Assembly (NCBI GenBank): GCA_001824825.1
Contig: MHTK01000004.1
Coordinates: 1-61,503 of the forward strand
Length of the DNA stretch: 61,503 nt
DNA from: Candidatus Vogelbacteria bacterium RIFOXYD1_FULL_46_19
GTDB taxonomy: Bacteria; Patescibacteriota; Minisyncoccia; Phycocordibacterales; XYD1-FULL-46-19
Reading direction: 5' to 3'
The notes under the pieces are model-generated. The model was not told where the DNA came from. It worked only from the letters and a program-made list of their open reading frames with translations, and searched no databases. Positions 3,801 through 43,955 of the stretch are shown piece after piece. Position numbers and translations under genes: made by a program. How positions within the stretch are numbered: the stretch's first letter is position 1; each line of letters opens with the position of its first letter.

Positions 3801-5324
3801 ATGACTGCAGCCACCTCTGCACAATTTAAAAGTGCGGTTCGTCCGCCGGTAGTGGTAGTCGTGGGTCATATTGACCACGGCAAATCCACCCTGCTCGACT
3901 ATATTCGGAAAAGCAATGTCGTGGCAACTGAAGCAGGCGGTATTACCCAGCACACTAGTGCTTATGAAGTTATTCATCCAGCTGAAGATGGTATCGAGCG
4001 AAAATTAACCTTTTTAGATACTCCTGGTCACGAAGCTTTTGCGGAAATGCGAGCCCGAGGAGCTAGTGTTTCCGACGTAGCTATTTTAGTCGTATCCGCC
4101 GAAGACGGCGTGAAGCCGCAAACCCTAGAAGCCTTGGCTGCCGTGAAAGCGGCCGGGATTCCTTTTGTAGTCGCTATCAATAAAATTGACCGCCCTAATG
4201 CCAATCCCGATCGCGTCAAACAAGAGTTGGGTGAACACGAAGTTTACGTGGAAAGTTATGGCGGTAAAGTACCAAGCGTCAATATTTCCGCCAAAACCGG
4301 TGAGGGTATTTCGGACTTGCTCGATCTAATCCTCTTAGTGTCCGATCTGGAAAACTTGACCGGTATCATTTCGGAGCCGGCCGATGGCTATGTTTTAGAA
4401 TCATATTTGGATCCCAAAGTAGGTATTACTATCACCCTCATCATTAAAAACGGCACCTTACTCTTAGGTGACTTGGTGGTGATTGAAGATAAGATGGCTA
4501 AAATTAAAAAAATTGAAAACTTCTTAGGTAATAGTATTAAATCAGCTTCGCTCTCTGCTCCGGTTAAAATTTACGGTTTTACCGACCCGGTGGAAGTGGG
4601 TCAAGACTTTAAAGCTTTTGGTAATAAAAAGGAAGCTGAAAAATATGTCAAAGATCATACGGATAAAAAAGAAGTTACCGACGCCAAATCGCCAGTCGCG
4701 GCCACCCTGGGATCTGAATCGGTGGAGCTAGCCATGGTCATTAAGAGTGACTCGCATGGCACCCTAGAGGCTGTTATGCATGAAGTCTGTAAGCTCGCCA
4801 GTGACCGGGTGCGATTTAAAATTGTCGATACGGGTATTGGTACCATTACTGACCGGGACTTAAAACTCCTGATTGGCTCCAGTCACCCGCTAGTGGCCGG
4901 CTTTAACGTGCGAGCCGATCGGTCCGCTTCTGACCTCGCCGAACGCTACAATGTTCCCTTGCAAACTTTCGATATTATTTACAAACTGACCGAGTGGTTA
5001 GAGGAGCAACTAAAACTTAATCGTCCCGAACTAACCGAAGAGGTGGTTATGGGCCAAGTTAAAATCTTAAAGGTATTCAGCCAAAATAACACCAAGCAAG
5101 TCGTGGGTGGGCAAGTGCAAACTGGCCGCTTTAAGAAAGGGGCTAGTGTTAAAATTGTGAGGCGCGAAGCCGAAATTGGCCGGGGTAAAGTGGTAGAGCT
5201 ACAAGCCCAAAAAGTAGCCGTAGCAGAAGTGTTAGAAGGCGATCAGTTTGGAACGATGATTGATGCCAAAATTCAACTGTCAGCCGGTGATGTCCTGCAA
5301 GCGGTGGAAATGGTCACTCAGTAA
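3801..5324 (+). CDS. infB: Translation initiation factor IF-2 (compact, no N-terminal extension)
   Basis: RPPVVVVVGHIDHGKSTLLD, EAGGITQH, DTPGHEAF, NKID. Confidence 0.97.
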   Translation: MTAATSAQFKSAVRPPVVVVVGHIDHGKSTLLDYIRKSNVVATEAGGITQHTSAYEVIHPAEDGIERKLTFLDTPGHEAFAEMRARGASVSDVAILVVSAEDGVKPQTLEALAAVKAAGIPFVVAINKIDRPNANPDRVKQELGEHEVYVESYGGKVPSVNISAKTGEGISDLLDLILLVSDLENLTGIISEPADGYVLESYLDPKVGITITLIIKNGTLLLGDLVVIEDKMAKIKKIENFLGNSIKSASLSAPVKIYGFTDPVEVGQDFKAFGNKKEAEKYVKDHTDKKEVTDAKSPVAATLGSESVELAMVIKSDSHGTLEAVMHEVCKLASDRVRFKIVDTGIGTITDRDLKLLIGSSHPLVAGFNVRADRSASDLAERYNVPLQTFDIIYKLTEWLEEQLKLNRPELTEEVVMGQVKILKVFSQNNTKQVVGGQVQTGRFKKGASVKIVRREAEIGRGKVVELQAQKVAVAEVLEGDQFGTMIDAKIQLSAGDVLQAVEMVTQ

Positions 5325-5364
5325 TGCATTTTTAAAAACTCTCTTGTATAATATTTAAGGTAAT

Positions 5365-5673
5365 ATGCCTGATTTGCACCATCATAGGCTCGAGCGATCC
5401 CTCACTGAACTGGTGGCTAAGTTCATTAACCAAGAAGCCTCCACTCAGTCCTTGGTCACAGTCACCCGTTTGAAACTATCTGAAGATCAGTATCATGCTG
5501 ATATTTACATTTCAGTTTTGCCGGAAGCGGAGGAGCGAGCCGCCTTGGCTTTTGTAAAAAACCATTTGAGCGAATTGCGCGACTATGTCAAAAAGCAGGC
5601 CAACTTTCGCTCACTACCGCACTTTACTGTGGATCTGGATTATGAAGAAAAGGCTCGCCAAATGGGAAGTTAA
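5365..5673 (+). CDS. rbfA: Ribosome-binding factor A
   Basis: Directly after infB; VTVTRLKLSED..ADIYISV and LPHFTVDLD match the RbfA KH pattern. Confidence 0.85.
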   Translation: MPDLHHHRLERSLTELVAKFINQEASTQSLVTVTRLKLSEDQYHADIYISVLPEAEERAALAFVKNHLSELRDYVKKQANFRSLPHFTVDLDYEEKARQMGS

Positions 5674-5678
5674 GTCAT

Positions 5679-5750
5679 GGCCTGGTGGCGAAGTGGTAAC
5701 GCAGCGGTCTGCAAAACCGCGATGCGCGGGTTCAATTCCCGCCCAGGCCT
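5679..5750 (+). tRNA. tRNA-Cys(GCA)
   Basis: GGCCTGG acceptor / CCAGGCC, anticodon arm GCGGT-CTGCAAA-ACCGC, T loop GGTTCAATTCC; CCA not encoded. Confidence 0.95.
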
Positions 5751-5777
5751 CAATAAATTTATATATAATTTAATAAT

Positions 5778-5850
5778 GCCCTGTTAGCTCAGTTGGCCCG
5801 GCCCGCAACGCCTGAGCAAGCTCTAGACTAGCGATGGCGGGCGAGTAGAA
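5778..5850 (+). pseudogene. tRNA-Lys 5' fragment with a palindromic insert at the D loop
   Basis: GCCCTGTTAGCTCAGTTGG is identical to 6015-6033, followed by a 48-bp GC-rich insert and GTAGA; no 3' half. Confidence 0.85.
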
Positions 5851-5900
5851 ATTTAAACAAAAATATGATGACATAATTTGACAAATTTTAGTTTTATAAT

Positions 5901-5956
5901 GCCCTGTTAGCTCAGTTGGCCCGCCTGCCATTGCTACGCTTCAGGCGTTAGTGGGC
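5901..5956 (+). pseudogene. Second tRNA-Lys 5' fragment with the related palindrome in the opposite orientation
   Basis: Same 19-nt tRNA 5' end, then CCCGCCTGCCATTGCTACGCTTCAGGCGTTAGTGGGC. Confidence 0.85.
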
Positions 5957-6014
5957 ACAAGATAGTTAACAACTTAGTGATCAATGATACAATAGTGAAA
6001 ATTTAATCTTATAT

Positions 6015-6087
6015 GCCCTGTTAGCTCAGTTGGTAGAGCAGTCGCCTCTTAAGCGAACGGTCGCAGGTTCGAATCCTGCACGGGGCA
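6015..6087 (+). tRNA. tRNA-Lys(CTT)
   Basis: GCCCTGT/ACGGGGC acceptor, TCGC-CTCTTAA-GCGA anticodon arm, GGTTCGAATCC. Confidence 0.95.
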
Positions 6088-6120
6088 CAAAATAAAAACG
6101 CCGTTAGGCGTTTTTATTTT

Positions 6121-6426
6121 GTGCCCCGTGAGCAAGCCAACTGCTTGGCTTGCGGTCAGGATTCGAACACCGGAGTTATGTTTGGTAAGCTTGCCAAACA
6201 AACGAGGTGGTGCCCAGACCAAAGTGAGTGGCGACGAGCTTTGAGTCGCGGGAGAATCCTGCCCCTAACTGCTTTGGTCGTGTGCAGGATTCGAAGAGGC
6301 TAAACATATCGCAGTGATCCGCCTTTGGCGGAGAAACGAGATGTGAAGCCTGTACCGTTCCCGCCCGCCTGCCATCGCCTGCTGGCTTAGGCGCTGGCGG
6401 GCAGGTAGGGGGAGAATCCTGCACCA
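6121..6426 (+). repeat. Two tandem tRNA-anchored structured mini-elements (class B then class A) tailored to tRNA-Lys
   Basis: CAGGATTCGAA...GAGAATCCTG arms repeated twice around conserved cores. Confidence 0.85.
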
Positions 6427-6512
6427 ACTGCCGGACGACTTTAAGACTTAGTAAGCAAAACAATAGCCCAACTTTTTAAAATATGGTAGCATCTAGAATG
6501 TTAACAACTAAA

Positions 6513-6594
6513 GCCCGGGTGGCGGAATTGGTATACGCGCACGACTTAAAATCGTGTCTCGAAAGGGATGCGGGTTCGATTCCCGCCCCGGGCA
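6513..6594 (+). tRNA. tRNA-Leu(TAA)
   Basis: GCCCGGG/CCCGGGC acceptor, CACGA-CTTAAAA-TCGTG, long variable arm. Confidence 0.95.
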
Positions 6595-6612
6595 CCTGTT
6601 ATTTGAAAGACC

Positions 6613-6696
6613 GCTGGAGTGGTGAAATTGGTAGACACGCAGCGTTCAGAGCGCTGTAGGGGCAACCCTATGGAGGTTCAAATCCTCTCTCCAGCA
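6613..6696 (+). tRNA. tRNA-Leu(CAG)
   Basis: GCTGGAG/CTCCAGC acceptor, CAGCG-TTCAGAG-CGCTG, long variable arm. Confidence 0.95.
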
Positions 6697-6723
6697 CACG
6701 TTTCGCTGTAAGCAAAAGATAGA

Positions 6724-6850
6724 GTGGTGGAGAAGCGACTGAACTGCTTCCGTCGCGTGAGAATTTGAAAGACTTTTCGTTGCCAAGCACCTGGTAAAGA
6801 TGACTTGGTCGAAAAGTACCAGCCCCCGTAGGGGGAAAGTCCTCTCTCCC
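6724..6850 (+). repeat. tRNA-anchored mini-element (class C) tailored to tRNA-Leu(CAG)
   Basis: GTGGTGGAGA..GAGAATTTGAA antisense arm, ACTTTTCG..CGAAAAGT stem, CCCCC-GTA-GGGGG, AAGTCCTCTCTCC sense arm. Confidence 0.8.
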
Positions 6851-6894
6851 GAAGGAAATAAACAAAGCGTAGGTTTTCAACACAAAAAAAATAT

Positions 6895-6976
6895 GCCGGG
6901 GTGGCGAAATTGGTAGACGCACTAGCCTTAGGAGCTAGCGGAGCAATCCATGGAGGTTCAAATCCTCTCCCCGGCA
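6895..6976 (+). tRNA. tRNA-Leu(TAG)
   Basis: GCCGGGG/CCCCGGC acceptor, CTAGC-CTTAGGA-GCTAG, long variable arm. Confidence 0.95.
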
Positions 6977-6992
6977 CAAAATTGAAAATTTT

Positions 6993-7126
6993 GAGCCGGG
7001 AACAAGTAAACTGCTTTACTTGTGGGAGGGGATTTGAAGAGGTTGATCATGTTGCAGTGAGCGGAGCGAAACGAGACGCGAAACCTGTACAGATTCCGTA
7101 GGAATCGAGTCCTCTCCCCGGCACCA
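6993..7126 (+). repeat. tRNA-anchored mini-element (class A) tailored to tRNA-Leu(TAG)
   Basis: GGAGGGGATTTGAA antisense arm, AGGTT..AACCT-GTAC, GATTCC-GTA-GGAATC, sense copy TCCTCTCCCCGGCACCA. Confidence 0.85.
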
Positions 7127-7191
7127 GTAGTAACTTGTTTGGCACCCTCCACTCCCCTTTTTAAGCCTTAAATCGAGGCGGATTTTTATCG

Positions 7192-7220
7192 TTGACTTTT
7201 AGGACTGAAAATGTTATAAT
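7192..7220 (+). promoter_or_regulatory. Sigma70-type promoter of the SPFH operon
   Basis: TTGACT-17 bp-TATAAT with an extended -10 TG. Confidence 0.8.
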
Positions 7221-7274
7221 TAAAGAAGTGAAATAGCTGTTTGACAACCGAACAGACATACAAGGAGAAGAAAG

Positions 7275-8633
7275 ATGTTTTGGTTAGGAATAATAATAGT
7301 CGTATCGACTTTCGCTTTAATCCTGATCCCAGGGGGGGTCTATATCTTTCAAAGAACGAAAGACGGAACAGATAACCAAGACATTTGGTTATCTCGTCCT
7401 GTTGTGGCGAGTGCAATTTATCTCGTCATAACCACCCTCTCTATAGTCGGGCTATACGCCGACTATCAACTGAAGTGGCCATACTGGTCATGGACAGTTT
7501 TCATCCTTCTCTTGATTCCCCTCCACTTAATCCTGTCCATCAGAAAAGTGGACATCGATGAGCTCGGAGTCATTCTCTTCTTCGGAAGAGTAGTTCAAGA
7601 TTTGGAGAAAACCGGCCCAGTCTGGATCCCGTGGCCACTGTATCAAATTGAACAAGTGACTGCACATATGCAGGAACTTGAACTCCCGGCGGCATCTTCT
7701 AAGATTTGGCGCGGGGAGATTGATGGTATGCCAAAGGACCAAGGTCTGCAGCCGGCATTTCGAGTAGTTCACCTGGCTCAAGACAATGAGGAATACCTGA
7801 AGAGCCTAAGGAACCTCGGTTACAAGATACCATCAGATGAGGAGATGGTGAAAAATGAGGCACAGGATAAAAGTGAATTAGATGCCTTATTCCGTAGACG
7901 CATAACTTCGGAAGTCGAAATATTCATAAGATGGAGAGTCTCCCCAGGAAACGCCGCTAGGTTCCTTAGAAACTATGGGGGTATCGAAGCGGTTAACTCC
8001 CAACTCGAAGACACCGTCAAAGGGACCGTCCTTGGGAACTTGGCCAAAATGAGCGCCGGAACAGCCCTTACACTCATAGACACCCTCAACGCTCAACTCA
8101 GAGACGAGTTAGACATAAGTCTAATCTCATTAGTACGATCTAATCACGGTTCTTCAGAAATTTCTGAACTGAGTCCGGAAGAATTCCGCGGACTTCCAGA
8201 GAAGGAAAAAAGGAAATTGATCGGCTCTCTCGGAATTGTATTTGAGGAAGCCCGGATCAAAGCTCTTAACCTCAATCATGCTTTGAATAAGTCGATGGCG
8301 GGGGCCGCCCAGGCTCAGTACGATAAACTCGATATCGAAGCAAGAGCTGAGGCTGAGAAGACTCGTTTGTCCAGAGAGGGTGAAGGTAAAGCTGAGGCAG
8401 CTAAACAGTTACTTCTGGCAGAAGCCGAAGGTCAAGCAGCTTTGGCAGAAGTCGCCGCCAGCGAAGGCGGGCAAGCTGCTCTGGCTTTCAAAGCCTTACA
8501 AACTGGACTGGAACAGTCTAAACACACCATCATCCCTGCTGGAGATGGCTTTGCTAGCCTAATGGGCCTAGCCGTTTCCGCCAAAGAAGTGCTGAAGAAT
8601 CAAGATCAAGGAGAAAAGGAGAACTCCGAATGA
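7275..8633 (+). CDS. SPFH (band 7/HflK-C-like) domain membrane protein
   Basis: N-terminal TMs, ELGVILFFGRVVQDLEKTGPVWIPWP, and a C-terminal A/E/K-rich coiled coil (AEAEKTRLSREGEGKAEA). Confidence 0.75.
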   Translation: MFWLGIIIVVSTFALILIPGGVYIFQRTKDGTDNQDIWLSRPVVASAIYLVITTLSIVGLYADYQLKWPYWSWTVFILLLIPLHLILSIRKVDIDELGVILFFGRVVQDLEKTGPVWIPWPLYQIEQVTAHMQELELPAASSKIWRGEIDGMPKDQGLQPAFRVVHLAQDNEEYLKSLRNLGYKIPSDEEMVKNEAQDKSELDALFRRRITSEVEIFIRWRVSPGNAARFLRNYGGIEAVNSQLEDTVKGTVLGNLAKMSAGTALTLIDTLNAQLRDELDISLISLVRSNHGSSEISELSPEEFRGLPEKEKRKLIGSLGIVFEEARIKALNLNHALNKSMAGAAQAQYDKLDIEARAEAEKTRLSREGEGKAEAAKQLLLAEAEGQAALAEVAASEGGQAALAFKALQTGLEQSKHTIIPAGDGFASLMGLAVSAKEVLKNQDQGEKENSE

Positions 8634-13099: not shown

Positions 13100-15580
13100 C
13101 TATAAACAAGTAAGTGATGCTATTGCGTCATCCCCTTTTAGCTTCATAATTCGCACGCCTTGGGTCTGACGACCTAAAGTTGGAATTTCTTCCAAGCTAG
13201 TGCGAATAATTTGACCATGTTTGGAGATCGCTACAATCTCCTCTTCACTCTCTGTTAGGACTTTAGCCGCCATTAGTTTGCCGGTTTTAGTCGTGACTTT
13301 AAAAGTTTTAATACCGGACCCGCCCCGCTTTTGTATTTTGTATTCTTTGACTTTAGTTTTTTTACCGTAGCCATTGTCCCCCATCACCAGCAAATCAGCC
13401 TGTGGGTTATCGGCTTTAATGACATCCGCCCCAATGACTAAGTCGTCTTTAGCGAGCTTAATAGCTCGCACCCCACCGGCCGCTCGGCCCATTTCTCTAA
13501 TATCGGAATCCTTAAAGCGAATACTCTGACCCTTTCTGGTGGCAATAATAGGGGAGTCACCTTTTTTGACCGGAAAAACCGATAATAATTCATCACGAGT
13601 CTCCAGTTTAATGGCAATAATCCCCGTACGGCGCACGTCCCGGAAACTTTCAGCTTTCACTTTTTTGGCCTCCCCGTTTCTGGTAACCATCATCACCGAC
13701 AAAGCGGAGTGATCAGTCCCCTTATCAAAAGACAAGACGGACGTAATTTTTTCTTCCGCCGATAGCGATAAGAAGTTCATTATCGATTTGCCTCTCGTGG
13801 CCCGTTTACCCTCCGATATTTCATACATTTTCAGTTGATAGACTTTGCCTTTGTCGGTGAAAAAGAGTAAGTCATCATGAGTGCCGGCCGACAGGAAAAT
13901 GGACACAAAATCTTCTTCCTTAACATTTAAATCAATCACCCCTTTACCACCGCGCCGTTGAGCCCGGTATTCAGACGGATCTGTCCGCTTAACATAACCC
14001 CCGGCCGTGAGGACTAAAACATTTTCCTTCTCCTCGATTAAATCTTCCACATTTATTTCCTTGACCCCGCCCTTCACCACTTTGGTTTTACGGGCATCAC
14101 CATATTTGTCTTTAATCTCAGCAAATTCATCTTTCACTATCTGAATCACCCGCTTAGGGTCGGCTAAAATTGCCTTCAGTTCTTTAATTAGAATTTGTTT
14201 CTCTTTTAATTCCTCCTCGACTTTCTGTCGTTCCAAGCCGGCTAGCTTTTGCAAACGCATTTCCAAAATAGCGGTAGTTTGCAAATCAGAAAATTTAAAC
14301 TCCTTCATTAAAGCCGCGTGAGCAGCCGCCGTGTCTTTAGACTTTCTAATCGTCTTAATAATCGCGTCGATATGATCAAGCGCTTTCTTAAGGCCCAGTA
14401 AAATATGCTCCCGGGCTTCGGCTTTAGCCAAATCAAACTTCGTGCGCCTGACGACCACAATTTGCCGGTAGCCAAAAAATTCTTCAATAATACTGCGCAG
14501 GGACAACAGTTTCGGTACGCCGTCGACCAGCGCCAGCATATTGAAGTGGAAAGCGGTCTCCAAGTCAGTGTGCTTATACAAAGCATTTAAAATTTTCTGC
14601 GGTTGAATACCAGTTTTTAGGTCGATCGCCACCCGAATATCACTAGTGGACTCGTCACGAATATCTTTGATTCCCTCAACTCTTTTTTCCCGCACCAAAT
14701 CGGCCATCTTGATAATCATCTCAGATTTATTCACCTGATAGGGAATCGAGGTGATAATAATTTGATGCTGGCCGGCTTTGTTTTCCACAATCTCCGCCTC
14801 CCCGCGCACTACTACCCCGCCGCGGCCGGTGGCATAAGCATGATGAATATCCTTTTGATTAAAAATCATCCCGCCGGTGGGGAAATCCGGACCTTTCACA
14901 AATTGCAACAAGTCTTCGTTGGTGGCCTTTGGATTATCGGCGAAATAAATCAAGGCTTCCAAAACTTCCGTCAAATTATGAGGCGGAATTTTGGTGGCCA
15001 TGCCCACCGCAATTCCAAAAGTACCATTCAATAAAATGTTAGGGACAGCCGATGGTAACACGACCGGCTCTTTACGTTCACCATCAAAGTTTGGCGTGTA
15101 GTCAACGGTATCTTTTTCAATATCACGTAAAAGTTCAGCGGTAATGCGAGCCATTTTAGCTTCGGTGTAACGATAGGCAGCGGCCGAGTCGCCATCAATC
15201 GAACCAAAGTTACCTTGGCCCCACACCAGCGGGTAGCGGGTGGCGAAACTCTGAGCCAGTTTAACCATCGCTTCGTAAACCGAAGAGTCTCCATGCGGGT
15301 GATATTTACCCAGCACGTCTCCCACAATGGTGGCGGATTTCTTGAACCGCGCTGAGGCAGTCAAACCCAGCTCATGCATTGAAAACAAAATTCGGCGGTG
15401 CACCGGCTTCAAACCATCTCGCACGTCTGGCAAAGCCCGCGACACAATCACCGACATTGAGTAGTCAAGATAAGACTCTTGCATTTCCGTCACAATACTA
15501 ACCGGCTTTACGGCATCCAGGCGCAAAACCACCTCTTTGGGTTCTTGATCGTTATTATTGTTTTTTTTGTGACGAGCCAT
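13100..15580 (-). CDS. gyrA: DNA gyrase subunit A
   Basis: [30 protein letters not shown] (catalytic Tyr), GyrA-box QRRGGKG. Confidence 0.98.
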
Positions 15581-15607
15581 AAATAATAAAGCTAGGGAAC
15601 TTAAATG

Positions 15608-24798: not shown

Positions 24799-24912
24799 GA
24801 TCCCCCGACATCACGTCTGCCTAGGGGGGATTCACCTCAGGTCAAGACTTCCCCGCCTTGACCACCGTCGGAACCAACCCTTCCCTAAAAGAAGGTTCCG
24901 GCGGCTTTTTTT
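24799..24912 (+). ncRNA. Candidate small structured RNA (unidentified)
   Basis: TTGATT-16-TAAACT upstream (24765-24792), three hairpins, ends in a T run, no ORF. Confidence 0.3.
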
Positions 24913-25023
24913 GTGGGGGATAGAGGACTCGAAACTTACAGTTTCAGTACAGGTTGTCGATATTTTCATACCAAAGGTCTCTGAAAATATCTGACTAACC
25001 TTTTCAAGTCCTCTATCTGCCAC
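24912..25023 (-). repeat. tRNA-anchored mini-element (class A) tailored to tRNA-Val
   Basis: Minus strand: GATAGAGGACTTGAA, AGGTT..AACCT-GTAC, GAAACT-GTA-AGTTTC, AGTCCTCTATCCCCCAC. Confidence 0.85.
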
Positions 25024-25077
25024 CCAAAATATAAAAAGCTGGAAACTTTAGGTATTCGCTTCCAGCTTATTATTTTG

Positions 25078-28007: not shown

Positions 28008-28137
28008 GACCCCTACGGGGAATCTTTCCCTACGGGAACGGTACAGGCTTCACATCTCGTTTCGCTACGCTCACTGCGATATGTTCAGCCTCTTCGATTC
28101 CCCGACGTGAGCAAAGCAGTTTGCTCACTTAGGGTCA
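28008..28137 (-). repeat. tRNA-anchored mini-element (class A) tailored to tRNA-Glu
   Basis: Minus strand: TGACCCTA[AACTGCTT hairpin]GGGAATCGAA, GAGGCTGAACATATCGCAGTG..CCTGTACCG, TTCCC-GTA-GGGAA, GATTCCCCGTAGGGGTC. Confidence 0.85.
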
Positions 28138-28184
28138 CTCAACAAAAATGGCCCGCCATAATAGCGGGCTCATTTTTGTACGAG

Positions 28185-34184: not shown

Positions 34185-34256
34185 ATGGTAATTTTAGCCA
34201 TCGAAACTTCCTGCGACCCTGGTGAAATAAAAAGACATTTCACAGGGCAAGACTAA
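34185..34256 (+). pseudogene. Duplicated tsaD 5' fragment ending in a palindrome
   Basis: MVILAIETSCD then PGEIKRHFTGQD*; 23-bp TAGCCATCGAAACTTCCTGCGAC identical to 34303-34325. Confidence 0.8.
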
Positions 34257-34292
34257 TTTAACACAACCACCAACTTTCTCTTAATAATTATC

Positions 34293-35441
34293 ATGACCAT
34301 CCTAGCCATCGAAACTTCCTGCGACGACACCGCGATCAGTATTGTGGACACCTCTGGTGACCTTGGGCACCCGACTTTTCAGGTGTTAGCCCAAATAATT
34401 TCTTCGCAAACATCCATCCATGCCCCGTGGGGTGGAGTGGTACCTAACCTCGCCAAACGCGAACACCTTAAAAACCTGTTGCCGGTTTTAGACCAAGCTT
34501 TAACAGACGCTAATTTAAAAAAATCAGCCGACGCCTCGCTAACAGCAGACCAGCAACTAGCTATCGCCAAAGCCCTCGAGCGCGAGCCCGACTTAGCTGT
34601 AAGTTTAACCAACTACTTGTCGGCTAACGCCAAGCCAAACATCGAAGCTATCGCCGTTACGGCCGGTCCCGGTTTAGAACCGGCCCTCTGGGCCGGTATC
34701 ACCTTTGCCGAAGCCCTCGCGAGCGCTTGGAACCTACCGCTCATTCCTGTCAACCACTTAGAAGGCCATGTCGTTTCTCCCCTCTTAAAGCAAGAGGCCA
34801 CTTTACCAGCCTTGGCCTTAATCGTCTCCGGTGGGCACACTGAGCTGATTGAAATCTCCGCTTGGGGTAAGTATCAAAAGCTCGGTAGCACTCGCGACGA
34901 TTCGGTGGGTGAAGCTTTTGACAAAGTCGCCCGCCTCTTAAACCTCCCTTACCCGGGCGGCCCAGCTATTTCTAAACTAGCCCTCGAGGCCGAAACCAAT
35001 CACTATCCCAACTCGTGGCAACTACCTCGGCCCATGATTGATTCCCCTGATTTGGACTTTTCCTTCTCTGGCTTAAAAACGGCGGTACGTTACGCCCTAG
35101 ACAAGAAAGGTGACTTAACGCCTGAAGACCGAGCGACCCTAGCTTTAGAGTTTGAACAAGCGGTGGTGGATACACTGATGGCTAAAGTGGCCAAAGCCCT
35201 ATCTGCCCACTCAGCTCGAAGCTTTATTTTAGGCGGCGGGGTAGCGGCCAACCAGCGCCTGCGCCAAACACTCACCACCCGTCTTCAAACTGACTTCCCT
35301 GATGTCCAGTTACTCCTACCCGAACCAACGCTGGCCACCGACAACGCCACCATGATCGCCCTGGCCGCCGGCTTAAAACTGCTGGCCGGCCCCCCGGCAC
35401 CACCAACTACCATCCGAGCCCAAGGTAATTTATCGCTTTAA
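34293..35441 (+). CDS. tsaD: tRNA N6-threonylcarbamoyladenosine transferase TsaD
   Basis: LAIETSCDDT, GGVVPNLAKREH, HLEGH, VSGGHT, DFSFSGLKT, TDNATMIA. Confidence 0.96.
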   Translation: MTILAIETSCDDTAISIVDTSGDLGHPTFQVLAQIISSQTSIHAPWGGVVPNLAKREHLKNLLPVLDQALTDANLKKSADASLTADQQLAIAKALEREPDLAVSLTNYLSANAKPNIEAIAVTAGPGLEPALWAGITFAEALASAWNLPLIPVNHLEGHVVSPLLKQEATLPALALIVSGGHTELIEISAWGKYQKLGSTRDDSVGEAFDKVARLLNLPYPGGPAISKLALEAETNHYPNSWQLPRPMIDSPDLDFSFSGLKTAVRYALDKKGDLTPEDRATLALEFEQAVVDTLMAKVAKALSAHSARSFILGGGVAANQRLRQTLTTRLQTDFPDVQLLLPEPTLATDNATMIALAAGLKLLAGPPAPPTTIRAQGNLSL

Positions 35442-38897: not shown

Positions 38898-38940
38898 GAT
38901 TAGTTTAAACTAAAAAATACCCGTGAGGGTATTTTTTTGA

Positions 38941-39088
38941 TGGGGGGCGGGCGATCTCACTCGTCGCTTCGCTCCTCTTTGAGAACCCACGGTTCTCAAC
39001 GTCTCTTCGCTTAAGCTCGGTCTGCTCTCCTCCACGGAAAAACTAGAGTTTTTCCGACCCTTTTCCTGTTCGAGCCCGCCCCCAAGCA
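38941..39088 (-). repeat. tRNA-anchored mini-element (distinct core) tailored to tRNA-Phe
   Basis: Minus strand: TGCTTGGGGGCGGGCTCGAAC antisense arm, GGAAAAACT..AGTTTTTCC and TTGAGAACC..GGTTCTCAA hairpins, sense GATCGCCCGCCCCCCA. Confidence 0.85.
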
Positions 39089-39113
39089 AAAACACCCTTA
39101 CGGGTGTTTTTTG

Positions 39114-40195: not shown

Positions 40196-40472
40196 TGCCC
40201 TCGGCAGGAATCTCCCCCAACGGGGGCTGGTATTTTTCGTCTCGCTCGCTTGGTAAAGCTCACTCTCATCGAAAAACCATTCGATTCCTGACGCAAAACA
40301 AGCCCTAAAGCCATCCAGCACGGAGTAGGCCAGTTGTTTTACCTAACTCGGCAGGAATCTCCTTCGACTCAAAATTTGGCCGTTGCCAAATTTTGGTCTA
40401 GGCACCCCCTCGCGCCAAAATTCTACTGAATTTTGACTTCGTGCGCTCCGGCGTTCGATTCCTGCCGAGGGC
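40196..40472 (-). repeat. Two tandem tRNA-anchored mini-elements (class B at 40347-40472, class C at 40196-40292) tailored to tRNA-Arg
   Basis: CAGGAATCGAA ... AGATTCCTGCCGAG arms twice; cores CCGGAGCGCACGAAGTC.. and TTTTTCG..CGAAAAA-TACCAG-CCCCC-GTT-GGGGG. Confidence 0.85.
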
Positions 40473-40521
40473 TACAAACCAATAGTCGCAAAATGTATCC
40501 ACATTTTGCTCGTTTGTTTTG

Positions 40522-41297: not shown

Positions 41298-41425
41298 GGG
41301 TAGGGAGATCGGTCACAACTCTTCTGCTTCGATAAATCTACGCTACGAAGGTCGCGACCCCGCCTCGCGCCGGAGTCCTGCTGGTCTCCGACTTCGTGCG
41401 CTCCGGCTTTCGATTCTCCCTACCC
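41298..41425 (-). repeat. tRNA-anchored mini-element (class B) tailored to tRNA-Gly
   Basis: Minus strand: GGGTAGGGAGAATCGAA, GCCGGAGCGCACGAAGTC..GGCGCGAGG, sense GATCTCCCTACCC. Confidence 0.85.
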
Positions 41426-41475
41426 ACTACTAAAACATACTCCCTCGAACCGGCAGTTCGAGCTCCTTGTTTTAG

Positions 41476-41966: not shown

Positions 41967-42080
41967 ATGTTATTTGGACGCAAACAACAGAAATACGTGC
42001 GAGTACTGGCCATTATCGTCGGGGTCCTGGTGATCATCAGCATGGTGGCCTTTTATTCTTTCCCCGCCTTACTCGGCTGA
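41967..42080 (+). CDS. 37-aa single-TM small protein (MLFGRKQQKYVRVLAIIVGVLVIISMVAFYSFPALLG)
   Basis: Manual translation; basic N-terminus plus TM; TATACT -10-like motif upstream; overlaps the lepA 3' end by 12 bp. Confidence 0.55.
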   Translation: MLFGRKQQKYVRVLAIIVGVLVIISMVAFYSFPALLG

Positions 42081-43871
42081 TTTCATCATTTTCAAAAATA
42101 CCTGCTGGGGGATATTAACTTTCCCCAGTTGTTGCATCTTTTTCTTACCTTTTTTCTGCTTTTCCCGTAATTTCATTTTGCGCGTAATATCACCCCCGTA
42201 TAAATAATCGGTTACATCTTTGCGTAAAGCCGCAATAGTCCTAGAGGCTAAAATCCGCCCCAGGGCTTGCGCTTGAATTTTAATAGTGATTAACTGCCGC
42301 GGCAGTAAATTTTTTAATTTATTCACCGCCTCCTCGGCTTCAGTCTGAACCCGCCGCCTGGCGATAACCCGCGAAAAAGCCGGGATAACTTCACTGTTGA
42401 TTAAAATATCAAGCCTAGCCACGTCGGCCAGGCGCTTATCCACCCGTTCATAAGAAAAACTAGCAAAGCCCGATGTCGCACTTTTAAGTTCATCAAAAAA
42501 GTTGCGCATCAATTCCCGTAAAGGCATAGAAATGGTTAGGGTCGCCCGCTTATCACCAAAATTTTCCATATCCCGAATTTCTCCCTCGTGATCATGCAAA
42601 ATCGGCATCAGACTGTTTAAATAATCCGTCGGCAAAATTAGCTTGACCGAAACCCAAGTTTCTCTAACTTCCTTGTTCTTTAAATCTTCCGGAAACAAAT
42701 GGGGGGTATAAACGGTATCAGTCTCACCAGTTTTATCATCTTTAATGTCATAGCTAATAGTGGGCGTGGCGATAATCAGTTGCAAATTAAACTCTCGCTT
42801 CAAGCGCTCACTAATTATTTCTAAGTGTAGCATTCCCAAAAAGCCACAACGAAAACCCCGCCCCAAAGACCCGGAAGCTTCTTCCTCAAACGATAAAGAT
42901 GAATCCTCGAGTTGAAGCCGGAGCAAAGCTTGACGGAGAAGGGAAAAATCATCCTGACCCTCCGGATAAATACTGGCCCACACCACCGGTGATGGCGTCA
43001 TATAACCCGGTATGGCCGTCACTGGCTCCTTAGTGCCCATTAAAGTGTCCCCCACTTTCGTTCCGCCAGCTTGTTTAATACCGGTTACCACGTAGCCAAT
43101 CTCGCCGGCCTTAATCGTCTCCACTGGGGTTTTAAAGGGAGCAAAGGTTCCCACTTCCAAAATGGTAAATTTTTCACCCGACGCGGCAAAAGTAATACTA
43201 TCACCTTTTTTAAGTGAGCCGTCGAAAACTCGAGTGTAAACAATCACTCCTCGATGCGTCGAATACTCAAAATCAAACACTAGAGCGCGAGTAGGAACAC
43301 TAGCCACTTGAGCCGGGGCCGGTATACCGCGCATAATTGCCTCAAACAACTCCGGAACACCGGCCCCAGTTTTACCGGAAACTTTAATAATATCAGCCGG
43401 GTCACAACCTAAAAGCTCCACCACCTCTTCAATGACTTTATCGATGGCGGCACTGGGTAAATCGATCTTATTAATAACTGGAATAATAATTAAATTCTCA
43501 GCTCGTGCCATATCGAGGACACTTAAAGTCTGGGCCTGCACTCCTTGAGTGGCGTCCACCAGGAGCAAAACCCCCTCCACCGCCTTCAAGGCCCGTGACA
43601 CCTCATAGGAAAAGTCGATATGGCCCGGGGTATCAATGAGGTTAAGAATGTAAGTCTCGCCCGAGGAGTGGTCCCGATAGGTCATACGCACGGGTTGCAT
43701 TTTGATAGTAATCCCCCGCTCACGCTCGAGCTCCATCGAGTCCAAGACCTGCTCCTTCATCTTTCTTTTTTCTATCGTCGCTGTGTGCTCCAACATCCGA
43801 TCGGCCAAAGTCGACTTACCGTGGTCTATGTGGGCAATGATGGAAAAATTACGGATATTATTACTAGACAT
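42069..43871 (-). CDS. lepA: Elongation factor 4
   Basis: IRNFSIIAHIDHGKSTLADR, ERERGITIK, GFRCGFLGMLHLEI, CTD GGDITRKMKL. Confidence 0.97.
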   Translation of the reverse strand: MSSNNIRNFSIIAHIDHGKSTLADRMLEHTATIEKRKMKEQVLDSMELERERGITIKMQPVRMTYRDHSSGETYILNLIDTPGHIDFSYEVSRALKAVEGVLLLVDATQGVQAQTLSVLDMARAENLIIIPVINKIDLPSAAIDKVIEEVVELLGCDPADIIKVSGKTGAGVPELFEAIMRGIPAPAQVASVPTRALVFDFEYSTHRGVIVYTRVFDGSLKKGDSITFAASGEKFTILEVGTFAPFKTPVETIKAGEIGYVVTGIKQAGGTKVGDTLMGTKEPVTAIPGYMTPSPVVWASIYPEGQDDFSLLRQALLRLQLEDSSLSFEEEASGSLGRGFRCGFLGMLHLEIISERLKREFNLQLIIATPTISYDIKDDKTGETDTVYTPHLFPEDLKNKEVRETWVSVKLILPTDYLNSLMPILHDHEGEIRDMENFGDKRATLTISMPLRELMRNFFDELKSATSGFASFSYERVDKRLADVARLDILINSEVIPAFSRVIARRRVQTEAEEAVNKLKNLLPRQLITIKIQAQALGRILASRTIAALRKDVTDYLYGGDITRKMKLREKQKKGKKKMQQLGKVNIPQQVFLKMMKSAE

Positions 43872-43955
43872 ATAGAAAATTTCACTCCGGGGCCAATTTA
43901 TTGGTTGCCGAATTATCTTATACTAACCCAAAAAAGCTTTAAATCAATAGAGATC

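Follow-up and report, generated by a model that had tools for sequence, protein, structure and literature searches.

Hairpin-plugged tRNA-Lys stubs in a patescibacterial genome: probable relics of a hairpin/mini-nuclease element

In the 61.5-kb stretch of DNA analysed here (the window), the sole intact tRNA-Lys(CTT) gene stands behind two truncated copies of its own 5′ end, each of them plugged by a GC-rich palindrome. We consider these stubs to be, more likely than not, the relics of two successive insertions of a selfish element at the junction G19|U20. The constant part of this element would be a GC-rich hairpin, which we named E, and its complete form would add a gene for a stand-alone GIY-YIG nuclease of 78 aa. 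The host is a member of the Patescibacteria (CPR), of the Paceibacteria/Nomurabacteria type, whose closest species representative shares 67% identity in IF-2. The locus lies 3′ of infB, rbfA and tRNA-Cys, with infB, rbfA and a Band_7 gene as neighbours.

The duplicated 5′ end is recognisable by the 19-mer GCCCTGTTAGCTCAGTTGG, which occurs three times in the window (5778–5796, 5901–5919 and 6015–6033). The third copy is the start of the intact tRNA-Lys(CTT) gene (6015–6088, forward strand; ARAGORN; Rfam tRNA, 69.5 bits), and the first-pass annotation was thus right in placing an intact gene downstream of duplicated 5′ ends. The other two copies, identical to 6015–6033 and on the same strand, represent tRNA positions 1–19 of stub 1 and stub 2. 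Neither stub was called as a tRNA by ARAGORN or Rfam, and an Rfam search of 5300–7400 at a permissive threshold yielded nothing beyond tRNAs and noise. Each copy follows an AT-rich leader. The leader of stub 1 (5752–5777, forward strand) is promoter-like, ends with AATAAT and shows partial homology to the other two (repeat family D1). The leader of stub 2 ends with TATAAT (5895–5900), located immediately 5′ of the stub at the end of spacer 1 (5850–5900, forward strand), while the TTATAT leader of the intact gene is carried by spacer 2 (5959–6014, forward strand). A stretch of 28 nt (ATAATG...GGCCCG) is identical between stub 1 and stub 2.

The element in stub 1, E1 (5797–5845), is a partly decayed long form in minus orientation with respect to the consensus. 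It is followed by TAGA (5846–5849, forward strand), corresponding to tRNA positions 20–23, with which the stub ends. Since the tRNA resumes for these 4 nt, E1 represents a clean insertion at G19|U20; the same junction, GG|E|TAGAGC, was also found in three metagenome loci (L160, L162 and L163). Stub 2 ends at position 19 and is followed by E2 (5920–5958, plus orientation), a short-form element of the T:A variant (CCTGCC...GGCAGG) with a decayed 3′ end. The third element, E3 (6364–6405, forward strand), belongs to a third subfamily, has an intact hairpin and splits the GTA triloop of the class-A unit 3′ of tRNA-Lys between G and TA (CCCG^TAGGG); in the sister units behind tRNA-Glu and tRNA-Leu the triloop is uninterrupted. 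The family alignment, which places E1, E2 and E3 in one family, bears out two claims of the first-pass annotation, namely that the two truncated copies carry the same kind of palindrome in opposite orientations and that a third relative interrupts the triloop. The inserts it had delimited are indeed homologous, although their ends had to be shifted by 1–2 nt. The shared 12-mer CCCGCCTGCCAT that had linked the inserts is, with two mismatches, not significant by itself; significance comes from the full-length similarity and from at least 119 copies outside the window. Because E1, E2 and E3 fall into three subfamilies and two orientations, they represent separate arrivals and not the outcome of local duplication.

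The surroundings of the stubs showed further structure. A perfect 24-nt inverted repeat (6079–6130) links three features: the tRNA-Lys 3′ end, a hairpin resembling a terminator, and the antisense arm of the unit that comes first downstream. Structured units of about 130–160 nt stand behind nearly every tRNA of the window (6119–6430, 6700–6860, 6985–7125, 24900–25070, 28020–28180, 38940–39110, 40200–40520 and 41300–41470). They consist of an antisense and then a sense copy of the T-arm/acceptor 3′ strand of the respective tRNA, with a conserved core between the arms; there are several core classes, and Rfam gave no match. The order of tRNAs in the window is Cys, Lys, Leu-TAA, Leu-CAG, Leu-TAG. 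Among relatives (L007–L029, 6800–9100) the content of the infB–rbfA–tRNA cluster (Cys, Leu-TAA, Lys-CTT, Leu-TAG) is kept, while its order is repeatedly inverted or reshuffled.

A repeated tRNA 5′ end is a place where collapsed strain variants or chimeric joins might produce such a pattern artificially, and the first-pass annotation had asked for assembly collapse to be checked. The ENA contig (103 kb), a JGI contig and Logan contigs from three groundwater samples turned out to agree: these five assemblies match the region 5365/5500–6049..6443 with 0–2 differences, and neither a joint lacking the stubs nor a filled/empty polymorphism was found among them. All five are short-read assemblies and the Logan contigs stop within the tRNA near 6050, which is what an artefact would have in its favour. 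However, independent assemblies from different samples and assemblers span both stubs into the tRNA with the same sequence, which speaks against a mis-assembly, and the identical design is present in unrelated genomes. An assembly artefact is therefore almost certainly the wrong explanation. A second contig of 339 nt from the same groundwater sample (run X1, record 3) resembles window positions 5785–5849, i.e., the end of stub 1 with E1, at about 92% (4 substitutions and one deleted base); it may represent a strain variant or another stub locus.

To delineate the family, a degenerate pattern was built from the copies of the relative L007 described below and run on public metagenome contigs. 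This single pattern matched at least 119 metagenome stretches. The contigs of the matches listed are groundwater and sediment sequences with a median GC content of 42%. To judge by sample types and GC content, and by housekeeping proteins that resemble those of CPR loci, the E-bearing contigs probably belong to CPR bacteria. Two high-GC matches (L132 and L203) were set aside as probably due to chance. In the viral contigs of IMG/VR the pattern was absent, so a phage vector is not supported. No published description of E was found in the literature searched, the coverage of which was incomplete. A reading of E as a DNA-uptake sequence was rejected, as there are only three copies in 61.5 kb, all of them clustered.

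The matches listed gave a non-redundant set of 112 copies; 120 copies were used for the frame and motif tests. The 112 non-redundant copies are 37–49 nt in length, with two main forms of 37–41 and 44–49 nt, and their ends are exact (CC...GGG) within unconserved flanks. At the variable position of CCYGCC/GGCRGG, 81 copies have a C:G pair and 15 have T:A (Fisher p = 3e-9). In the register (CCCG)CCYGCC-AT-CGC-T-ACGC-TCAG-GCGT-T-A-GCG-GGCRGG, 95.8% of the cells are paired, three pairs have changed on both sides and 0 of 500 shuffles reach the score, a result to be read with the caveat that several columns were fixed beforehand by the search pattern. A second register, whose outer stem would have 9 bp (CCCGCCCGC/GCGGGCGGG), was no better than shuffles, and the shifted register was preferred on covariation. 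Judged from these base changes, the hairpin appears to be under selection. Its copies in the window have aged to different degrees: E3 still forms an intact hairpin (−14.3 kcal/mol; DNA fold z-score −2.5), while the folding of E1 and E2 does not exceed that of shuffled sequence (z-scores −0.8 and −0.4). Against a common metagenome variant, 4 of the 39 positions of E2 are different.

Copies of E are also carried by the relatives L007 and L050. Three of them lie near the corresponding tRNA cluster of L007: an E1-like copy within the GTG triloop of the unit that follows tRNA-Cys, a copy placed in a truncated tRNA-Cys 5′ end at its anticodon loop, and a 45-nt member of the E3 subfamily (4955–4998) which is inserted in frame in the N-terminal region of IF-2. 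The latter encodes PRLPSPAGSATGGQA just before the conserved RPPV...GHIDHGKS and is absent from the IF-2 of the window; it shares 37 of 41 nt with E3. Between E1 and its L007 counterpart, blocks of 16/16 and 13/13 nt are identical.

Comparison of filled stubs with the empty, intact tRNA in five loci (L160, L163, L186, L193 and L121) revealed an exact CC...GGG insertion and no target duplication. The D-loop proved to be a hot spot: 12 of the 112 non-redundant copies (about 11%) lie directly 3′ of a D-arm-like sequence ending with GG or GG(N)TA, a context that accounts for 0.17% of random positions, which corresponds to an enrichment of about 60-fold. Other stub sites of E are the junctions 7|8, 9|10 and 12|13 and the anticodon loop. 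The preference for GG in loops put forward in the first-pass annotation is thus real in the D-loop; outside tRNA stubs, however, the flanks exhibited no general sequence preference, and many copies reside in protein genes. Open frames of at least 150 codons contain 53 of the 120 copies, and those deep in frames are mostly 39 nt long. At least ten of the in-gene copies are plain in-frame insertions of 11–16 residues relative to homologues. They are present in LepA (L130, compared with window 42072–43922) and GyrA (L136 and L173, compared with window 13103–15607), the homologues of which lack them, as well as in IF-2, GyrB-like and DnaJ-like proteins. Several solitary copies (L197, L200 and L184) are flanked by direct repeats of variable length. 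Within stubs, E occurs in both orientations (about 10 versus 9).

At many loci, a truncated tRNA 5′ copy is followed by the hairpin, an ORF of 78–85 aa and the intact tRNA gene. This design was found at tRNA-Lys(TTT), tRNA-His, tRNA-Gln, tRNA-Thr, tRNA-Leu and tRNA-Asn (ORF-bearing loci L186, L126, L201, L121, L160, L162, L116, L188, L202 and L155), with tandem modules in L202 and L155. The ORF encodes a bare GIY-YIG catalytic domain (PF01541, E = 1e-15) whose closest solved proteins are UPF0213 BH0048 and EF2693 (1ZG2 and 1YWL); a family-level match in NCBIfam was not found. GIY-YIG was the sole recurrent protein family among the 119 E loci listed, with 27 ORFs in 21 of them, lying a median of 43 nt away from E and usually on its 5′ side; most E copies have no ORF nearby. 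Long-form elements are over-represented beside the ORF (11/13 versus 30/102, p = 2e-4). This association could partly reflect a common liking of nuclease and hairpin for tRNA 5′ regions. The recurrence of the stub design at many kinds of tRNA, the D-loop hot spot and the three subfamilies support the earlier proposal of a palindromic unit of about 40–50 nt landing repeatedly. Normally, however, a 78-aa GIY-YIG gene stands between stub and tRNA; the window lacks it, and it was out of sight for the first-pass annotation.

Loci that were fetched by infB synteny, independently of E (L014, L023, L072, L054 and L032), extended the design to other palindromes. In L014, a stub, a different GC-rich palindrome and a 97-aa GIY-YIG gene are located directly 5′ of the syntenic tRNA-Lys(CTT). 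The same arrangement with other palindromes is present at tRNA-Cys in L023, L072 and L054 and at tRNA-Leu in L032. The 16-nt palindrome TCCGCCAGCTGGCGGA plugs stubs in L014 (7033–7048) and in L155 (the stub of the second ORF). As these contigs are unrelated, at least one other hairpin family plays the role of E. A series of stubs 5′ of tRNA-Cys (L007, 6850–6945; L050, 7250–7400; L023, L072 and L054) is made up of 5′ halves that break off within the anticodon loop (CTG(C)|...|(C)AAAAC). Either E or pairs of small hairpins serve as their plug, and a GIY-YIG gene is present in some cases and absent in others; in L050 the tRNA-Cys is intact, and behind it stand half an E and a 3′ half. In L193 (6050–6410), the stub before the GIY-YIG gene (GCCCTGGTAGCTCAACGGATA...) is unlike the tRNA behind it (GCGCCCATAGCTCAATGGATAG...), where the contig ends, and this mismatch suggests that the stub may be transferred to another tRNA jointly with its hairpin and ORF. 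A protein gene of the window shows the same stub design: at tsaD (34186–34330) the first 11 codons (MVILAIETSCD) are duplicated, the upstream copy is plugged by a different hairpin (CCCTGGTGAAAT..ATTTCACAGGG, 34217–34247), and a spacer of about 55 nt leads to the intact start (MTILAIETSCDD).

Stub loci without an ORF were found as well (L163, L120, L099, L100, L178, L175 and L007), with spacers of 23–58 nt; in L163 a pair of identical stub units stands in tandem ahead of tRNA-Asn, and L120 has one at tRNA-Lys(CTT). In L175 a piece of the ORF start is retained, and L007 has a junction sequence in common with the ORF-bearing L023. By eye, the spacers of ORF-less loci gave no convincing mutual alignment because all of them are AT-rich. 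Neither a GIY-YIG gene nor a remnant was detected in the window by tblastn or with the family profile (six-frame translations of the spacers and the whole window), and its spacers showed no homology to ORF-bearing cassettes. An ORF may have been lost from the window locus, as comparison with other loci suggests.

The closest known counterpart of the hairpin/ORF pair is the Ssn family of single-domain GIY-YIG nucleases, which attach to a hairpin repeat of single-stranded DNA and cleave next to it (Chenal et al. 2025, Nat Commun 16:2388, PMC11893778). Ssn genes are flanked by the NTS/SRM repeat, a hairpin of 20–50 nt with many solitary copies, which is enriched in reduced-genome symbionts and rarely found inside genes; the authors remarked on the insertion-sequence-like layout, and the paper mentions neither CPR bacteria nor tRNA genes or stubs (PMC11893778). 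The two systems resemble each other in a tiny GIY-YIG gene flanked by a conserved hairpin whose asymmetric flank gives it an orientation. Repeats flank the nuclease gene in related E loci (21 of the 119 listed), but not in the window. In contrast to NTS, E is often located in frame in genes, and neither any of 120 E copies (with 25 nt on each side) nor any of E1–E3 fits the degenerate SRM motif HGTCWY...RNCYNB on either strand. The CPR protein is a candidate member of clade cd10448 (Ssn) or of cd10456 (UPF0213).

By analogy with the Ssn nucleases, we infer the following route for the mobility of E: with the DNA single-stranded, the nuclease would bind to the hairpin and cleave next to it, and repair or copying would then spread the hairpin together with its cargo. 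Hairpins standing alone, E3 and the in-frame copies among them, would be mobilised in trans. Each insertion into the tRNA would leave the old promoter and tRNA positions 1–19(–23) upstream, plugged by the hairpin, and would supply, on the downstream side, an intact tRNA gene together with a new AT-rich leader; as the gene would be rebuilt, the essential tRNA would never be lost. In the window, the nuclease genes would have been deleted, or else a nuclease-less miniature would have inserted, so that hairpin, a spacer of about 55 nt and stub remain. E3 would represent a separate, solitary insertion. Simple neutral decay does not account for the decayed state of E1 and E2 beside unmutated 19-nt stubs; the latter may reflect gene conversion with the live gene.

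The two insertions could also be explained by the hairpin alone. A MITE- or REP-like palindrome moved in trans would then have hit the D-loop twice, promoter and 5′ end would have been duplicated locally, either in rescue of each hit or as its direct product, and the nuclease cassette would never have been present at this locus. A window without a trace of GIY-YIG is what such a course of events would leave, and it fits well with the ORF-less stub arrays elsewhere, whose spacers are of similar length (23–58 nt), with the variable direct repeats round solitary copies (L197, L200 and L184) and with the fact that most copies of E lack a neighbouring ORF. Yet a relative (L014) has an ORF-bearing cassette and stub at the syntenic tRNA-Lys, and L175 as well as the pair L007/L023 represent ORF-less forms derived from ORF-bearing ones. 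Moreover, clean insertions occur without any duplication, and a simple insertion predicts the 3′ part of the tRNA right behind E, which is not what was observed. We thus regard a history without the nuclease as unlikely, though worth keeping in view.

Far less probable is a function of the stubs as small-RNA genes, with the 5′ tRNA half and the hairpin acting as a decoy or regulator, e.g., against tRNA-directed nucleases. The TATAAT or AATAAT directly 5′ of both stubs, and the 19-nt stubs left unmutated while E1 and E2 drifted, would suit such genes. An RNA-level role for E is unlikely, however, since it occurs in stubs in both orientations (about 10 versus 9) and inside protein genes; in addition, E1 and E2 fold no better than shuffles, no terminator follows the stubs, and three metatranscriptome runs of the same study contained no match to the stretch. 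It is similarly hard to believe that the stubs are att remnants of deleted integrase-type islands in tRNA-Lys, with the palindromes as recombinase-binding sites. Integrative elements usually leave a partly duplicated tRNA behind, and the tRNA cluster is rearranged among relatives, but with integrases it is the 3′ part of the tRNA that is found twice, whereas the 5′ part is duplicated here; no integrase was found nearby in the window, none recurs among the 119 E loci listed, and E is found in frame in housekeeping genes. A split tRNA or a tRNA intron was rejected, as every E-bearing tRNA copy is truncated and adjoined by an intact one. Relics of a hairpin/mini-nuclease element therefore remain our preferred explanation.

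Such an element shares single traits with several other known systems. The free-standing GIY-YIG homing endonuclease SegB of phage T4 is encoded in a tRNA gene cluster (PMC2330249). Like the ORFs described here it combines a GIY-YIG gene with a location among tRNA genes and spreads with flanking sequence, but SegB has a DNA-binding domain and no hairpin partner, while our ORFs are bare 78-aa catalytic domains. Mobile endonuclease ORFs of mitochondria bring a replacement gene end and leave the old end behind as a pseudo-copy; the replaced end is the 3′ end in mitochondria and the 5′ end here. The REP/BIME elements with RAYT and the IS200/IS605 family rely on short imperfect palindromes recognised as single-stranded-DNA hairpins, and they share with E the lack of a target duplication and the many solitary copies per enzyme gene. 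Unlike REP/RAYT, however, E is often intragenic, lacks a conserved external 5′ tetranucleotide of the GTAG type and has no HUH/Y1 protein recurring nearby (119 loci listed). MITEs differ in that E exhibits no target-site duplication of fixed length, as seen from the comparison of filled and empty tRNAs.

Palindromes of comparable behaviour are also known from reduced and organellar genomes. The Rickettsia palindromic elements (RPE) of 100–150 bp, reportedly described by Ogata et al. in 2000 and also mentioned in PMC1779305, are found in frame in protein genes and also in RNA genes. They resemble E as selfish palindromes of a reduced-genome symbiont which occur in frame in protein genes and do not destroy RNA genes. 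E is unrelated in sequence and shorter, and RPE, in their classic description, have neither a nuclease gene nor a stub-forming 5′ duplication. The GC clusters of yeast mitochondria are conserved GC-rich palindromes in an AT-rich genome and are presumed mobile; the PstI palindromes of Neurospora, as reported by Yin et al. (1981), flank tRNA genes. These mitochondrial GC palindromes are likewise scattered, often adjoin tRNA genes and are occasionally intragenic, but they are organellar, unrelated in sequence, have no linked nuclease gene and form no stubs.

It is conceivable, at odds we would put somewhat below even, that hairpin and bare 78-aa GIY-YIG nuclease constitute a new class of prokaryotic mobile elements. 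This class would be hairpin-guided and HUH-independent, would insert duplicatively with formation of stubs at the 5′ parts of tRNA genes and of some protein genes while the target is kept active, and would spread in its nuclease-less miniature form across the Patescibacteria, even in frame within essential genes; the window would then preserve two fossil rounds of its activity. On the practical side, hairpin/nuclease pairs are of interest as site-specific single-stranded-DNA nucleases. For genome annotation, the stubs account for spurious partial tRNA matches and for contig breaks at tRNA genes, and in-frame copies of E for odd inserts of 13–16 aa (e.g., RPLTPERSDGGR) in CPR proteins.

The genomes of CPR bacteria/Patescibacteria are regarded as streamlined and poor in mobile DNA. 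E represents a single hairpin family with near base-level conservation across many lineages, residing in genes for tRNAs and essential proteins as well as in loops of structured RNAs, and it is physically tied to one of the smallest known nuclease genes. Movement of the hairpin by the nuclease, if it occurs, would provide the first evidence that hairpin/nuclease pairs of the Ssn type are mobile. It would also show how an element can inhabit an essential tRNA gene present in one copy, namely by restoring that gene on its far side.
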